Position numbers and translations under genes: made by a program
Part shown: positions 59 through 5,702 of the stretch, piece after piece
How positions within the stretch are numbered: position 1 is the first letter of the stretch
Layout: every line of letters begins with the position of its first letter
Notes under the pieces: generated by a model
Told to the model about the DNA's origin: nothing
Seen by the model: only the letters and a program-made list of their open reading frames with translations
The model's database searches: none
IMG/VR virus record: IMGVR_UViG_2671180770_000006
Direction: 5' to 3' (one strand)
Length of the DNA: 5,784 nucleotides
DNA from: a virus
Taxonomy: Duplodnaviria; Heunggongvirae; Uroviricota; Caudoviricetes

Positions 59-378
59 TGCCAGCATCCTTTTTGTATCGGACGTAAACGGGCCAACATT
101 GAAAGAATGCATATTTTATTTAATAGCTCCCGTTCGTGTTTTCTCTTGTTAATGGCATCTTCAGTAAATACAGGGTTACTGATAGTGACACCAATTTCAA
201 AACAACCTTCAGACGTATTAACGTTTGGTAATAACGTTTCCATTATCGCGTCCTCAACAATGAATTTTGTGATGCAGTGCCTGGTGCCTCCAGGTGACGT
301 TAACCAGTTAACAATTAACGCCGGATACAGAGCATTCCCGTTACGCCCGTAAAAGACCGCTTGTTTTAACTGTTCCAC
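55..378 (-). CDS. Hypothetical small protein (107 codons from GTG at 378; alternative ATG at 243 with GAGGA 7 nt upstream would give 62 aa)
   Basis: ORF from the six-frame track; the codon at 376-378 is GTG with no obvious SD, whereas the internal ATG at 241-243 has a good SD. Protein-like composition extends to about 378. Stop overlaps the next gene's ATG (ATGA). Confidence 0.5.
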   Translation of the reverse strand: MEQLKQAVFYGRNGNALYPALIVNWLTSPGGTRHCITKFIVEDAIMETLLPNVNTSEGCFEIGVTISNPVFTEDAINKRKHERELLNKICILSMLARLRPIQKGCWQ

Positions 379-810
379 GTGCGCTGAGCCGCATTCACCG
401 CATCACAAAATTCACTTTAAAAAAGGCGGCAGAGCAGTTACGGAGTAAAACTGGTACCGCCAAACGTCACCAGAAAATGGATAACAGAGGGCGTTGCAGC
501 GTGGTTGTCTCTTAAGCGTATGGTCAACCTGACAACCCGGTGTACTCAACGGGGAAGGAATAACCCCGCCATACTTACCGCCGCGCCATTTCGCGGATTG
601 CCACAACCGGAAGCGCACGGTCGACGAAAATTTAACGACAGGCTATCTATGAACCAGCTACCTCGCCGAGCGCTTTCGCGTTATGGTCTGACTTTTCAGG
701 GAAATATCCTTTCAGTAAACTGTCAGTGCCGGATGCTCACCCGTGTCCGGCGCACGCACTCCACCTCACCCGTGGAGAACTCCTTAATCACCAACCCTCA
801 GGAGGGTGAA

Positions 811-1940: not shown

Positions 1941-2011
1941 GCTGACCTCATTTCCCCTTAACGCCGGGTGGCGGAACTAAAACCTACAGCGCCGTGCTGT
2001 TCTTGATGGGA

Positions 2012-2040
2012 ATATTAGTAACGCGGATATTTTAAGTCAA
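2012..2040 (-). promoter_or_regulatory. PL-like sigma70 early-left promoter (minus strand: TTGACT, 17-nt spacer, TAATAT)
   Basis: -35 TTGACT is the reverse complement of 2035-2040 and -10 TAATAT the reverse complement of 2012-2017, with a 17-nt spacer. It sits upstream of the leftward small-gene operon and its spacer/-10 closely resembles the PR-like promoter. Confidence 0.5.
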
Positions 2041-2137
2041 CAGTATGGCGTATGATATTTTTGATTTGGTAACTATGTAAATGTTTTTTCAAGGGAAAAA
2101 TATTAGTTATACAGCTGATTTGCAAAAGTTATGGCAC

Positions 2138-2167
2138 AAAAAAACCGACTAAGACGTCGGTTTTTTT
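2138..2167. terminator. Bidirectional rho-independent terminator just downstream of the repressor gene
   Basis: A7-CCGAC-taagac-GTCGG-T7: a perfect 12-bp inverted repeat with a GC core and A/T runs on both sides, so it gives a U-tract in either orientation. Located 27 nt beyond the repressor stop (2194-2196). Confidence 0.75.
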
Positions 2168-2193
2168 GTTGTGGATGGGGTAGTGAGCGGTGG

Positions 2194-2655
2194 CTACTGG
2201 TTACGTTTCTTTAGTGCCAGCATGTTCTCGAAGGCTTCCTCGTAGAGCTTGTTTAGTCCACGTAGCTGGTTAAGGAGTTTGGCTTTTTCTGACGCAGGTA
2301 GAATCTCGAAGAGGTTAAGTAACTCTGCCTGTTCTTCATTGACCAGCCTCCATCCTTTGCCTGAAAAGTTATCATCATAATTATCTGATGATCTTACATA
2401 ATTCATTAAGTCTTTAAGGTCTTCTCGAATGTCCTCTGGTTTTACCTTTAACAGAGCCGCAAATTTTAGCGCAGCGTCGGTATTTACCGGTATCTTGCCG
2501 TTCAGATACTGGCTAACGGTGCCTTGAGATTCGAATCCCAACAACTCAGCCGCCAGCTCTTGAGTCAGCTTCAGCTCTTTTTTTCTTGCATTCCATGCGG
2601 CTTTTAAATTCTTGCTCGCTTCTGGAGTTGCAATCACTTCGCGTGTTTTTTTCAT
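2194..2655 (-). CDS. racR: Prophage immunity repressor, CI/RacR-like, XRE-type HTH near the N-terminus, 153 aa; no recognisable LexA/S24 autocleavage domain
   Basis: HTH-like segment LTQELAAELLGFESQGTVSQYLNGK; divergent from a Cro-like gene across about 100 bp; terminator immediately downstream; C-terminal half lacks a peptidase-like motif. Symbol given by architecture match to the Rac RacR-YdaS-YdaT module, not by verified identity. Confidence 0.8.
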   Translation of the reverse strand: MKKTREVIATPEASKNLKAAWNARKKELKLTQELAAELLGFESQGTVSQYLNGKIPVNTDAALKFAALLKVKPEDIREDLKDLMNYVRSSDNYDDNFSGKGWRLVNEEQAELLNLFEILPASEKAKLLNQLRGLNKLYEEAFENMLALKKRNQ

Positions 2656-2661
2656 ACATAG

Positions 2662-2689
2662 AGTTTATTTGTTTTACCAATATTATCAA
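2662..2689 (-). promoter_or_regulatory. PRM-like promoter for the repressor (minus strand: TTGATA, 16-nt spacer, TAAACT), predicting a leaderless or near-leaderless repressor mRNA
   Basis: -10 TAAACT ends 6 nt before the repressor ATG and there is no SD upstream of that ATG, analogous to lambda cI transcribed from PRM. Hexamers read from the sequence; the start site is inferred. Confidence 0.4.
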
Positions 2690-2693
2690 AGAC

Positions 2694-2702
2694 AGTCTGA
2701 CT
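2694..2702. promoter_or_regulatory. Palindrome AGTCtGACT between the divergent -35 elements; candidate operator
   Basis: 9-bp dyad with a central T, positioned between the PRM-like and PR-like -35 hexamers. Confidence 0.3.
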
Positions 2703-2703
2703 A

Positions 2704-2732
2704 TTGATCTTTAAAATTAGCGGGGCTAATAT
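2704..2732 (+). promoter_or_regulatory. PR-like sigma70 early-right promoter (TTGATC, 17-nt spacer, TAATAT) with embedded inverted repeat ATTAGC-GGG-GCTAAT (2716-2730)
   Basis: -35 at 2704-2709 and -10 at 2727-2732. The 6-3-6 inverted repeat occupies the spacer and overlaps the -10, a typical operator position. About 30 nt upstream of the Cro-like ATG. Confidence 0.55.
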
Positions 2733-2762
2733 TTGCTCGAGGCATAACGTAGAAGGTTGGCT

Positions 2763-3038
2763 ATGAACTTAAGAGACTATTTAAAAGAGAAACATATCAC
2801 CCAGCTACAGTTTGGGAAGCTAACGGGTTTATCTCAGGTGCATGTAAGTCGAGTGCTGGGGGGCTATGAAAGATTCAGCCCTGAAAAAGCATTACGTGTT
2901 GCTGAAGTAACGAATTTCGAGGTTACACCTCATGAACTCCGGCCTGATATTTACCCGAATCCAACCGACGGCTTACCTGTTGGATTCAAGGCTAACACAC
3001 CAAATGCATCGGAGTTGATTCATGAAAATCAGGCATGA
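2763..3038 (+). CDS. ydaS: Cro-like small HTH regulator (YdaS family-like), 91 aa
   Basis: ATG at 2763 with GAAGG 6 nt upstream (the track's 2757 start is a TTG). HTH-like ITQLQFGKLTGLSQVHVSRVLGG and an ELRPD motif; divergent from the repressor. Symbol is by family resemblance. Confidence 0.75.
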   Translation: MNLRDYLKEKHITQLQFGKLTGLSQVHVSRVLGGYERFSPEKALRVAEVTNFEVTPHELRPDIYPNPTDGLPVGFKANTPNASELIHENQA

Positions 3039-3447
3039 GCACATCCGCATGGCGATGAATGCCTGGGCGCGTCCTGATGGCGAAAAAGTTCCAGCAGCTG
3101 GAATAACCCAGGCTTATTTTGAGTTGGGTATGACGTTTCCTGAACTGTATGACGACAGCCATCCGGAAGCCCTGGCTCGCAATACACAGAAAATTTTCCG
3201 CTGGGTAGAGAAAGACACCCCTGATGCAGTTGAAAAAATTCAGGCGTTGTTACCAGCGATCGAAAAAGCAATGCCGCCTCTGCTGGTGGCCCGAATGCGC
3301 AGCCACAGTTCAGCTTATTTTCGGGAGCTGGTGGAGACGCGGGAACGACTGGTGAGAGACGCTGATGATTTTGTCGCAGTGGCGATCGCTGGTTTCAACC
3401 AGATGAATCGTGGTGGCCCGGCGGGAAATATTGTGGTTGTGCATTGA
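3022..3447 (+). CDS. ydaT: YdaT-like protein (reported CII-type functional analogue in Rac/CP-933P-type prophages), 141 aa
   Basis: N-terminus MKIRHEHI and C-terminal ...VVVH match my recollection of YdaT-family proteins; GGAG 7 nt upstream; overlaps the Cro-like stop by 17 nt, consistent with coupling. Assignment is from memory, not a search. Confidence 0.7.
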   Translation: MKIRHEHIRMAMNAWARPDGEKVPAAGITQAYFELGMTFPELYDDSHPEALARNTQKIFRWVEKDTPDAVEKIQALLPAIEKAMPPLLVARMRSHSSAYFRELVETRERLVRDADDFVAVAIAGFNQMNRGGPAGNIVVVH

Positions 3448-3518: not shown

Positions 3519-4559
3519 ATGGCTAATGCCTGGCTCAGATTATGGCATGACATGCCAAATGATCCTAAGTGGCGAACAATTTCCAGGGTGTCAGGACAGC
3601 CAATTGCAACAGTGATGGCGGTGTATATCCACCTTCTGGTGAGCGCGTCACGAAATGTCACGACATGTCACGGCGTGTCACTACGTGGTCACATTGATGT
3701 CACGACGGAAGATTTAGCAAGTGCGCTTGATGTGACGGAAGAAGTAATTGATTCAATTTTACAGGCAATGCAGGGGCGGGTACTTGATGGAGATTTAATC
3801 ACCGGATGGGAAAAACGCCAGGTACTGAAAGAGGACAATGGCAACGTTTCACAAACCGCGAAATCCCCAGCAGAGCGCAAGAGAGCGCAGCGCGAGAGGG
3901 AAAAATTACGAAAACAGAATGAGGGGTGTCACGACGAGTCACGCATATGTCACGACATGTCACGACGAGTCACGACAGATAAAGATACAGATAAAGAATT
4001 AAACCCCACACATAACGCGCACGTGCGCGAGAGTGATCCGACCAGTGAGTCGAGTGGTACGCCGTTGCAGGCAGCAGAACCTGCATCCCTGGATGGACTG
4101 AGCGAACCCATCGGGAAATTTCCGATGGTCGATGGCTGGCATCCGTCGCCGGATTTTCGACGACGGGCTGCGTTGTGGGGGATGGCTTTGCCGGAGCCGG
4201 AATTTACACCTGCTGAACTTGCCGCTTTCCGGGACTACTGGGCAGCGGAGGGGAAAGTTTTCACGCAGGTTCAGTGGGAGCAGAAATTCGCCCGTCACGT
4301 AAATCACGTCAGGGCGCAGGTTAAGCCAGTCAGCAAGGGGGTAAACCATGCAGCAGCACCAGGTGGCACCGCATCACGGGCAGTTCAGGAAATTCGGGCA
4401 GCACGTGAGCAGTGGGAACGTGAAAACGGATTTATCAGCGACGGAAACGGTCTGGAAGCTGTGGGAACTCATGGGGGAGGTTTATTCGAACCGCTGGACC
4501 CAGAAGAACGGGGCCGCACCTTCGAAGCTCTGGATTGCACAGATTGGCGCGATGACTGA
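3519..4559 (+). CDS. Replication initiator (lambda O functional analogue): N-terminal domain, low-complexity charged linker and C-terminal domain; contains the putative origin
   Basis: Sits immediately upstream of a P-like gene; two arrays of GTCAC(GAC) direct repeats plus an AT-rich tract lie inside the ORF, the linker-embedded arrangement known for ori-lambda in gene O. ATG at 3519 with AGAGG 5 nt upstream (track start 3513 is a GTG). The last 212 nt overlap the P-like gene out of frame, so the true C-terminus is uncertain. Confidence 0.65.
   Translation: MANAWLRLWHDMPNDPKWRTISRVSGQPIATVMAVYIHLLVSASRNVTTCHGVSLRGHIDVTTEDLASALDVTEEVIDSILQAMQGRVLDGDLITGWEKRQVLKEDNGNVSQTAKSPAERKRAQREREKLRKQNEGCHDESRICHDMSRRVTTDKDTDKELNPTHNAHVRESDPTSESSGTPLQAAEPASLDGLSEPIGKFPMVDGWHPSPDFRRRAALWGMALPEPEFTPAELAAFRDYWAAEGKVFTQVQWEQKFARHVNHVRAQVKPVSKGVNHAAAPGGTASRAVQEIRAAREQWERENGFISDGNGLEAVGTHGGGLFEPLDPEERGRTFEALDCTDWRDD
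3647..3708 (+). repeat. Iteron-like array 1: six direct repeats of GTCAC(GAC) at 10-11 bp spacing (starts 3647, 3657, 3667, 3677, 3688, 3699)
   Basis: Counted directly. The helical-turn period places the repeats on one DNA face, and the phase drift makes the protein read CHD / SR / VTT in rotating frames. Confidence 0.7.
3928..4003 (+). repeat. Iteron-like array 2: five GTCACGAC-type repeats (starts 3928, 3938, 3949, 3959, 3969) followed by AT-rich GATAAAGATACAGATAAAGAATTAAA (3978-4003); candidate origin core and unwinding element
   Basis: Counted directly. The iterons-then-AT-rich layout parallels ori-lambda; the AT tract itself contains GATAAAGA twice. Confidence 0.65.
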
Positions 4560-5045: not shown

Positions 5046-5702
5046 ATGGAGACTGTTTTTGACGCACTGAAAGCGATGGGAAAAGCCACGTTGGTAGAGC
5101 TGGCTGCGCGACTTGATATCAGTCGTGAAGAAGTGCTGAACGAACTATGGGAACTGAAAAACGTTGGTTTCGTTGATAAAAGCGCGTACACCTGGCGTGT
5201 GGCTGATAACAACGTTCAGCAGGAACAGCCAGCGCAGGCAGAACTGCCGGAAGAAACCACCACAGCAACAGTAGCGAAAATCTCAGAGTGCGATTTAACC
5301 GCAACGATTGAACAACGCGGACCACAAACGGCGGATGAACTGGCTACGTTTTTCTGCATCACATCACGCAAAGTGGCTTCAAAGCTGGCAATGGCAATCA
5401 GTAAAGGTCGTCTGATTCGCGTTAATCAGGACGGTAAATTTCGTTACTGCATACCGGGCGCTGATTTACCGGCAGAGCCGGAAGCTGCATCCGTAGCGGA
5501 AACGGATGGTAAAGCCTTTCCTCAGCCAGCAGGTGCTGCGTTACCAGTCCGGGACGCAGCAACACAGGAAGAAATTAAAACAGAAACTGTGGCGGACATT
5601 GTGCAGCCGTTGCCATCGTTTACCGAAACGCAAGCAGATGAGCTGATTTTTCCGTCCCTTCGCAGGGCAAACCTAGCGCTGCGCAGGGGCTTTGTTGAAT
5701 AA
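5046..5702 (+). CDS. Hypothetical protein with two tandem winged-helix-like segments, 218 aa; first gene of the nin-equivalent region after P
   Basis: GGGAGGA 5 nt upstream of the ATG at 5046. Residues about 14-52 and 92-135 both show a helix-turn-helix then beta-hairpin pattern ([39 protein letters not shown] and [43 protein letters not shown]). Confidence 0.65.

Follow-up and report, generated by a model that had tools for sequence, protein, structure and literature searches.

Among the hallmarks of lambda-type immunity switches are opposite orders of operator affinity for Cro and the repressor, cooperative binding of the repressor at OR1 and OR2, and activation of PRM from OR2, which in lambda is centred at −42 of PRM and is the site from which cI stimulates this promoter, with E34 and D38 being the positive-control residues of cI. 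Sister modules with at least three reiterated operators have already been described for RacR (PMC9638921), PaaR2/YdaS (PMC8630535), and DicA/DicC (PMC10448788). In the Rac prophage of Escherichia coli K-12, the RacR operators O1–O3 are three 6-n3-6 inverted repeats of the form (T/A)TAGGC-n3-GCCTA(T/A), and YdaS does not repress racR (PMC9638921). DicA of the Qin prophage has three operators at each of dicCp and dicBp, and its repression is relieved by the antirepressor Rem (PMC10448788), while in CP-933P of E. coli O157:H7 the paaR2 mRNA was shown experimentally to be leaderless and the footprints of PaaR2 and YdaS overlap (PMC8630535).

Here, we analysed a stretch of DNA of 5,784 nucleotides (hereafter “the window”) from a Rac/Qin-like lambdoid prophage of E. 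coli, of which it forms the immunity and early region, with a focus on the 107-bp region (2656–2762) that separates its divergent repressor and Cro-like genes. The layout of this region is that of lambda OR. It is likely to be the right operator of an immunity switch in a lambdoid prophage, with the architecture known from lambda, in which the two palindromes that an earlier note on this DNA took to suggest two different binding specificities are the inner parts of OR2 and OR1.

As in lambda, three related odd-centred dyads lie about 24 bp apart between divergent promoters, where OR1 overlies the −10 region of PR, OR2 overlies the −35 of PR beside that of PRM, and OR3 overlies PRM. The two switches also have in common a cI-like N-terminal repressor domain, a leaderless repressor mRNA (predicted here), and a matching left operator at PL, and the position of OR2 relative to PRM is nearly the same (about −43 here versus −42 in lambda). 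They differ in that the half-site reads AATATTAGY-N3 here versus TATCACCGC in lambda, the repressor is without the S24 self-cleavage domain, YdaT replaces CII, the Cro-like protein is a YdaS-family helix-turn-helix (HTH) protein and not a lambda Cro fold, and the left operator consists of two adjacent sites plus a putative displaced one.

Resemblance to the other three modules is divided among different parts of the locus. The Qin DicA/DicC module has a short non-cleavable repressor whose C-terminal segment is homologous to that of the window (BLASTP, 38% identity over 42 aa, E = 8e-6; residues 111–152 versus DicA 91–132), as well as a leftward operon with DUF1391, DicF, and dicB; however, the DNA-binding domain of DicA gave no BLASTP alignment with the repressor N-terminus, DicC did not align with the Cro-like protein of the window and is unrelated to it, and one dyad of the DicA region is even-centred by our own reading of the sequence (TTGTTAGT-CATA-ACTAACAA). 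K-12 Rac likewise has YdaS-family and YdaT-family genes to the right, transcribed from PR (32% and 33% identity to the Cro-like protein and YdaT of the window, respectively), and its RacR operators superficially resemble the ATTAGC-n3-GCTAAT element of the window, but RacR is not detectably related to the repressor (BLASTP E = 26) and RacR O3 overlaps the racR start codon. As K-12 YdaS leaves racR unrepressed, the Cro-like protein of the window need not share the operators with the repressor. Operators of RacR or DicA type were considered on grounds of homology and rejected, given that no RacR similarity was detected and that the resemblance to DicA is limited to the C-terminus. With CP-933P, the window shares YdaT, which matches its CP-933P counterpart over the full length (PDB 8bt1, E = 1.4e-78), the YdaT operator OM at the ydaS/ydaT junction with one mismatch (PMC9986795), an intergenic region of about 100 bp, and a leaderless repressor mRNA (again predicted here). 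The two differ in repressor and Cro specificity, the CP-933P repeats being four inverted repeats with the consensus GTTTAGTAA, and in the genes that follow the repressor: for the small ORFs located there in the window, Pfam gave DUF1391 or nothing, and no paaA2-parE2 toxin-antitoxin genes were found.

Gene content and predicted promoters

Window positions 2100–3045 match phage Rac-SA53 at 97.8% identity, with dicA and dicC as the gene names in the phage annotation, and about 180 of 5426 complete E. coli genomes contain the repressor/Cro segment. Our literature search found no paper on this immunity type, and the sole full-text match to Rac-SA53 concerned an unrelated topic. The features of the locus are collected in Table 1. 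The leftward operon comprises DUF1391, DicF, further small ORFs, and an ORF presumed to be dicB-like from its sequence; the window also holds an O-like gene with iterons, a P-like gene, and a DUF1627 gene, and a terminator-like hairpin can be read 3' of the repressor gene.

Table 1 Features of the immunity region in the window; matrix scores are from the half-site weight matrix built on distant relatives
Feature	Position	Strand	Sequence or assignment	Matrix score (bits)	Rank	Occurrence by chance
OR1	2713–2733		AAAATTAGC-GGG-GCTAATATT; centre 2723; contains the 6-3-6 dyad of the earlier note	19.5	1/5764	never reached in 2.3 million simulated positions
OR2	2688–2708		AAAGACAGT-CTG-ACTATTGAT; centre 2698; core is AGTCTGACT	12.2	4/5764	per-position p = 1.4e-5
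OR3	2664–2684		TTTATTTGT-TTT-ACCAATATT; centre 2674	8.4	7/5764	per-position p = 1.3e-4
OL1	2011–2031		AATATTAGT-AAC-GCGGATATT; over PL −10 and spacer	15.2	2/5764	per-position p = 3e-6
OL2	2036–2056		GTCAACAGT-ATG-GCGTATGAT; over PL −35; 25 bp from OL1	6.3	11/5764	per-position p = 3e-4
Extra operator-like site	2099–2119		AATATTAGT-TAT-ACAGCTGAT; one strong half-site	12.1	5/5764	p = 1.5e-5
PR-like promoter	2704–2732	+	TTGATC (2704–2709), 17-bp spacer, TAATAT (2727–2732); predicted
PRM-like promoter	2662–2689	−	TTGATA (2689–2684), 16-bp spacer, TAAACT (2667–2662); scan 9/12; predicted
PL-like promoter	2012–2040	−	TTGACT-17-TAATAT; scan 9/12; predicted to drive the DUF1391...DicF-dicB operon
Repressor gene	2194–2655	−	153 aa; Pfam HTH_3 and HTH_31 only
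Cro-like gene, YdaS family	2763–3038	+	91 aa; Pfam YdaS_toxin and HTH_3
Shine-Dalgarno of Cro-like gene	2752–2755	+	AAGG; read from sequence
YdaT gene	3022–3447	+	Pfam YdaT_toxin
YdaT operator OM	3015–3032		TTGATTCATGAAAATCAG; one mismatch
DUF1391 gene	1785–1940	−	Pfam; leftward operon
DicF RNA	424–475	−	70.5 bits; leftward operon
Presumed dicB-like ORF	within 55–378	−	leftward operon

The best PDB sequence match of the repressor is the N-terminal domain of lambda cI (E = 2.6e-4), and the top Foldseek match of its modelled N-terminal domain (pLDDT 79–91) is 1lmb, with a target-normalised TM-score of 0.77. As modelled, this domain is lambda cI-like, which fits an odd-centred operator, and in the PDB sequence alignment its residues E33 and E37 align with lambda E34 and D38. 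Pfam found no S24 peptidase domain in the 153-aa protein. The C-terminal part of the model (pLDDT 43–60) is too low in confidence for inference on oligomerisation, so that cooperativity is hypothetical here.

The locus is a compact divergent PRM/PR immunity switch between the repressor and Cro-like genes, with symmetric operator elements overlapping the promoters. Direct reading of the sequence located all of the elements listed in the earlier note, namely the two divergent promoters, the 9-bp palindrome AGTCTGACT at 2694–2702, the 6-3-6 inverted repeat ATTAGC-GGG-GCTAAT at 2716–2730, and a GATC inside the PR −35 (2706–2709); the distance between the −35 hexamers, given there as about 15 bp, was read as 14 bp (2690–2703). 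The consensus scan for promoters had a threshold of 9 of 12 positions and did not list this PR because it matches 8 of 12 by hand count, one below the threshold. Its hexamers and their spacing are kept in Salmonella-type relatives, and most distant relatives have TTGAC/TTGAT...TAATAT; the −10 of PL is identical to that of PR (TAATAT). An alternative PR that the scan did list, AAGACA-17-TAAAAT (2689–2717), was rejected, as the Salmonella-type relatives conserve TTGATC-17-TAATAT and not this pair of hexamers. On the other strand, the PRM −10 ends 7 nt before the repressor ATG and no Shine-Dalgarno sequence was seen in the reading; PRM is predicted to start at the A of this ATG (2655), giving a leaderless repressor mRNA. 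In relatives, hand reading of the printed sequences shows a −10-like hexamer equally far from the ATG. No direct repeats were found within 2620–2790, and the YdaT motif TTGATT-N6-AATCAA had no match in 2656–2762 at up to three mismatches; an action of YdaT in the intergenic region was discarded as a candidate, the good site being at the ydaS/ydaT junction instead.

A three-site operator family conserved in relatives

Full-length relatives of the repressor are 58–92% identical to it, and the other homologues share the N-terminal domain only. The latter group has a nearly identical recognition helix (ESQG[TS]VSQYLNGKIP), and most members carry an S24 peptidase C-terminus (PF00717). A first scan of viral contigs with a mixed alignment yielded almost only near-identical or 69%-identical loci, and the loci of distant relatives were obtained by exact-protein look-ups; those with organism labels are from Azonexus, Azoarcus, and Thauera, and most of the set consists of metagenome contigs, along with some sequencing-run contigs. 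The half-site weight matrix was built from 29 operators in ten distinct upstream regions of these distant repressors, with the window excluded.

The upstream regions of the distant relatives (about 82 bp) align with that of the window, and most contain three AGY-N3-RCT dyads, with centres spaced 24/25 bp apart in 9 of the 11 non-window rows. A typical OR3 in this set reads ATTATTAGS-NNN-GCTRWT, a typical OR2 GCAAGCAGY-NNG-ACTGTTGAC, and a typical OR1 AAWCAGT-CGG-ACTAATATT, the core of which is AGT-CGG-ACT. The counterparts of AGTCTGACT include AGC-CCG-ACT, AGC-CTG-ACT, and AGT-CAG-GCT, and one distant relative (L305) carries AGTCTGACT itself at OR2. The Cro-like proteins are also related across this distance: that of the window is 36% identical over 45 aa, HTH included, to that of another distant relative (L300), and the HTH segment G[LV]SQxxVS is common to the Cro-like proteins of the window and the distant relatives.

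Scoring of the window with this matrix placed OR1 and OL1 at the top (Table 1), and none of 400 simulated windows contained a triple of sites scoring 8.4 bits or more with a spacing of 23–26 bp. OR3 is the weakest of the right sites, with about 0.7 sites of 8.4 bits expected per window by chance, and the assignment of the weak sites OR3 and OL2 relies on spacing, OR3 being exactly 24 bp from OR2. The right-operator centres are spaced 24 bp (OR3–OR2) and 25 bp (OR2–OR1); OR1 covers the PR spacer and −10, OR2 overlaps the −35 of PR and adjoins that of PRM, and OR3 covers the PRM spacer and part of the PRM −10. Judged by sequence, OR1, OR2, and OR3 are one operator family of 21-bp odd-centred dyads, with the half-site AATATTAGY and the core AGY-N3-RCT. 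The earlier note had argued that its two dyads suggest two DNA-binding specificities rather than lambda-style reiterated operators. This is not supported: the dyads share core and half-site at 25-bp spacing, and a third related site, which the note had missed, lies 24 bp further left and completes a three-site layout also present in distant relatives whose recognition helix is the same.

The same grammar extends to the left of the repressor gene. The heptamer AATATTA occurs in four copies in the window, all of them in the two regulatory regions flanking this gene, and when every 21-mer was scored as a 9-3-9 match to AATATTAGY, the best four were OR1, OL1, OR3, and the 2099–2119 site. By hand alignment, OL1 matches OR1 at 15 of 21 positions and in the same register relative to the −10, and the exact 9-mer AATATTAGT is common to OL1 and the 2099–2119 site. 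The latter lies 63 bp from OL2 and is a possible displaced OL3. An OL3 at the position expected from lambda, near 2070, was rejected, with weight-matrix scores at 2069–2072 running from −11 to −28 (−13 at 2070).

Symmetry was less informative than comparison. Dyad pairs number eight of nine in OR1, six of nine in OR3, and five of nine in OR2, which has one poor half-site. Only the extended 9-3-9 dyad of OR1 is unusual (2 of about 5760 centres, this one included, pair to that extent). Perfect 4-1-4 palindromes number 30 in the window (23.5 expected), and there are 5 perfect 6-3-6 inverted repeats (1.6 expected). Neither of the dyads in the earlier note is above chance on its own, and significance arises only from comparison with related loci; dyad symmetry alone was dropped as an operator criterion, as neither OR2 nor OR3 stands out by it.

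Natural variation and competing explanations

Close relatives, with repressors 97–99% identical, supplied 25 distinct intergenic alleles; because some loci had been fetched twice, distinct alleles and polymorphic sites were used instead of allele frequencies. Among the 12 polymorphic operator positions, 11 fall within the 21 positions that are degenerate in the distant-relative matrix (the N3 spacer, position 9 as Y/R, and position 6 as T/C) and 1 within the other 42 (Fisher p = 5.7e-6). Half-site positions 4, 7, and 8 of OR1–OR3 showed no polymorphism in the 25 alleles, and variants at position 9 were always Y to Y or R to R. In OR1, variants were confined to the N3 spacer, position 9, and position 3, with the GGG spacer varying at all three of its positions, and in OR2 to positions 6, 9, and the spacer. 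Many alleles break the palindromes of the earlier note, reading AGTCTGGCT or AGTTTGACT at the shorter one and ATTAGT-NNN-GCTAAT (e.g., ATTAGT-GGG-GCTAAT) at the longer one; the perfect palindromes are therefore accidents of this allele, and the operator pattern is the conserved part. For the left operators, hand reading of ungapped differences, a comparison made rough by indels, placed OL1 variants mostly in the spacer and position 9, with one rare allele altering position 7, and OL2 variants at positions 6, 9, and the spacer. Since the operators overlap promoter hexamers, promoter function may account for some of the conservation.

In Salmonella-type homologues (69% identical), the helix reads E[TA]QS[TA]VSHYLNG (e.g., ETQSTVSHYLNG) and the promoter geometry is kept, and position 8 of the half-sites is mostly A, not G, in many alleles in both halves of OR1 (e.g., TAAATTAAT-ATA-GTTAATATT). 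The change of the operator in step with the recognition helix is suggestive of covariation.

Several other explanations of the region have to be weighed against a single operator family. The two palindromes differ in length and outer sequence, and HTH proteins are encoded on both sides, as would be expected if they were different elements for two proteins and not reiterated operators, for instance with the repressor on ATTAGC-N3-GCTAAT and the Cro-like protein on AGTCTGACT. We consider this very improbable: both dyads share AGY-N3-RCT and match one matrix derived elsewhere, and the 24/25-bp spacing and the third site are conserved in most distant relatives. Moreover, C2697, which belongs to an arm of the 4-1-4 palindrome, is an operator spacer position that varies freely in close and distant relatives, and the change of A2700 to G in many alleles breaks the 9-bp palindrome but keeps R at position 9. 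A separate question is whether three real operators are used by the repressor only, with the YdaS-family protein not serving as a lambda-type Cro at OR3/PRM and perhaps being just a toxin or anti-repressor, or binding elsewhere. The operator sequences track the recognition helix of the repressor, and K-12 Rac YdaS did not repress racR (PMC9638921), both of which favour exclusive use; nonetheless, it seems unlikely to us, as the footprints of CP-933P YdaS overlap those of PaaR2 and YdaS represses PRM there (PMC8630535), and as the shared HTH segment of the Cro-like proteins implies that these, too, stay paired with the operators.

A role for chance can be argued from the 35% G+C of the region (48% for the window) and from the perfect 4-1-4 and 6-3-6 dyads, which are not rarer than chance in the window; the dyads would then have arisen in an AT-rich promoter region, or been conserved through their overlap with the −10 and −35 hexamers, and would have no operator function. 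This we find scarcely credible, since the conserved A4, A7, and G8 are largely in promoter spacers or between the promoters, where there is little polymerase constraint, the pattern persists across enterobacterial prophages and distant relatives that include the Azonexus, Azoarcus, and Thauera genomes, and polymorphism follows the operator model. Finally, the GATC at 2706–2709 is inside OR2 as well as inside the PR −35 and is kept in E. albertii and most Salmonella-type relatives, which raises the idea that its Dam methylation is a regulatory input to the switch. However, TTGATC occurs in only 1 of 10 distinct distant relatives (L305), the others having TTGACG, TTGACC, TTGATA, TTGATT, TTGCAA, and similar hexamers; the window contains nine GATC sites, and TTGATC is one step from TTGAC/TTGAT. 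With this distribution, kept among enterobacterial relatives but present in one of ten distant ones, the GATC gives no pointer to function here, and we regard Dam control as very improbable.

Proposed mechanism and wider meaning

We hypothesize that, with the 107-bp region serving as a lambda-like right operator, dimers of the 153-aa repressor would fill OR1 and OR2, and also OL1 and OL2 at PL, and would thereby shut off both the Cro-like/YdaT/replication operon and the dicBF-like operon. The dimer at OR2, near −43 of the leaderless PRM, may stimulate this promoter in the manner of lambda cI, and occupancy of OR3 would provide negative autoregulation at high repressor levels. The Cro-like YdaS-family protein would use the same operators with a different order of preference. 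The DicA-like C-terminus and the lack of an S24 domain suggest that induction probably proceeds via an antirepressor or bistable switching, not RecA-stimulated self-cleavage, by analogy with DicA/Rem (PMC10448788) and PaaR2/YdaS (PMC8630535), and YdaT would act at its own site at 3015–3032 (PMC9986795). All of these protein-DNA assignments are computational.

More tentatively, and with considerable doubt, the repressor N-terminal domain, the operator grammar (AATATTAGY-N3-RCTAATATT, three sites, 24/25 bp), and the Cro-like HTH might together form an ancient portable immunity cassette, shared by enterobacterial Rac/Qin-like prophages and distant relatives including phages of Azonexus, Azoarcus, and Thauera, in which only the C-terminal control domain is swapped (S24 self-cleavage versus DicA-like, antirepressor-controlled). 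If this were true, homo-immunity at the level of DNA binding would extend across phages of very different hosts even though the signals that induce them differ, and the extra strong operator-like sites at 2099–2119, 5630–5650, and 166–186 could serve long-range repressor looping.

The understanding of lambdoid switches is unchanged by these results, which document that the control domain of the repressor has been naturally swapped while the module of DNA-binding domain and operators stayed unchanged. They also carry the lesson that seemingly “different” palindromes can belong to one degenerate operator family. Overall, our analysis provides a testable operator map (OR1–3, OL1–2, half-site AATATTAGY) for an immunity type, carried by about 180 of 5426 complete E. 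coli genomes, that controls a dicBF-type cell-division-inhibitor operon.

A DNA-binding and operator cassette shared among relatives

Repressor genes and their upstream regions were compared at the fetched relative loci L007, L009, L013 and L296-L306, where both the recognition helix and the operator layout were the same as in the window, while the C-terminus was mostly an S24 peptidase rather than DicA-like; in L305 and L306, a short repressor is followed by a HipA_2-family gene. This pairing of the same helix and operator layout with mostly S24 C-termini indicates that the control domain has been swapped while the cassette of DNA-binding domain and operators was conserved.

The regions upstream of the repressor were also compared at Salmonella-type loci (L005, L006, L109-L135), in which the repressor is 69% identical and the promoter geometry is kept. 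Position 8 of the operator half-site (AATATTAGY in the window) changes there from G to mostly A, alongside changes in the recognition helix. Another 4-1-4 palindrome, AGACAGTCT, overlaps the palindrome highlighted in the earlier note (2694-2702, at the centre of the predicted operator OR2); it needs C2693, and nearly all related alleles have T at this position.

Further sites in the window

Outside OR and OL1-OL2, the operator matrix (built from 29 sites of distant relatives) gave three more strong matches, with per-position p of 4e-6 to 3.5e-5; they may be distal operators or may have arisen by chance. What looks like a bidirectional intrinsic terminator, with the hairpin ACCGAC-N6-GTCGGT set between an A-run and a T-run, separates the stop codon of the repressor gene from the PL region; a terminator scan of the window did not have this hairpin among its listed sites. 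Inside the O-like replication gene, repeats resembling TGTCACGAC recur with 10-bp phasing in two clusters and look like origin iterons.

In CP-933P, the YdaT operator OM (TTGATT-N6-AATCAA) was placed at the ydaS/ydaT junction (PMC9986795), and the window carries in the same place, exactly where ydaS ends and ydaT starts, the sequence TTGATTCATGAAAATCAG, which is OM with one mismatch.

Features of the window; ranks are among 5764 positions
Feature	Position	Strand	Score	Remark
dicB-like ORF	55-378	-
Operator-matrix match	166-186		11.05 bits, rank 6	within dicB-like ORF
DicF sRNA	424-475	-	70.5 bits	Rfam RF00039
Operator-matrix match	2099-2119		12.1 bits, rank 5
Terminator-like element	2138-2167
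Second palindrome	2690-2698
OM-like site	3015-3032
Repeat clusters	3645-3706, 3924-3986
Operator-matrix match	5630-5650		14.5 bits, rank 3	within DUF1627 gene

The leftward operon

Both the DicF sRNA and the dicB-like ORF lie downstream of the PL-like promoter, and therefore the repressor of the window probably controls a dicBF-type cell-division-inhibitor operon, in the same role as DicA, which controls the dicBF operon of Qin.
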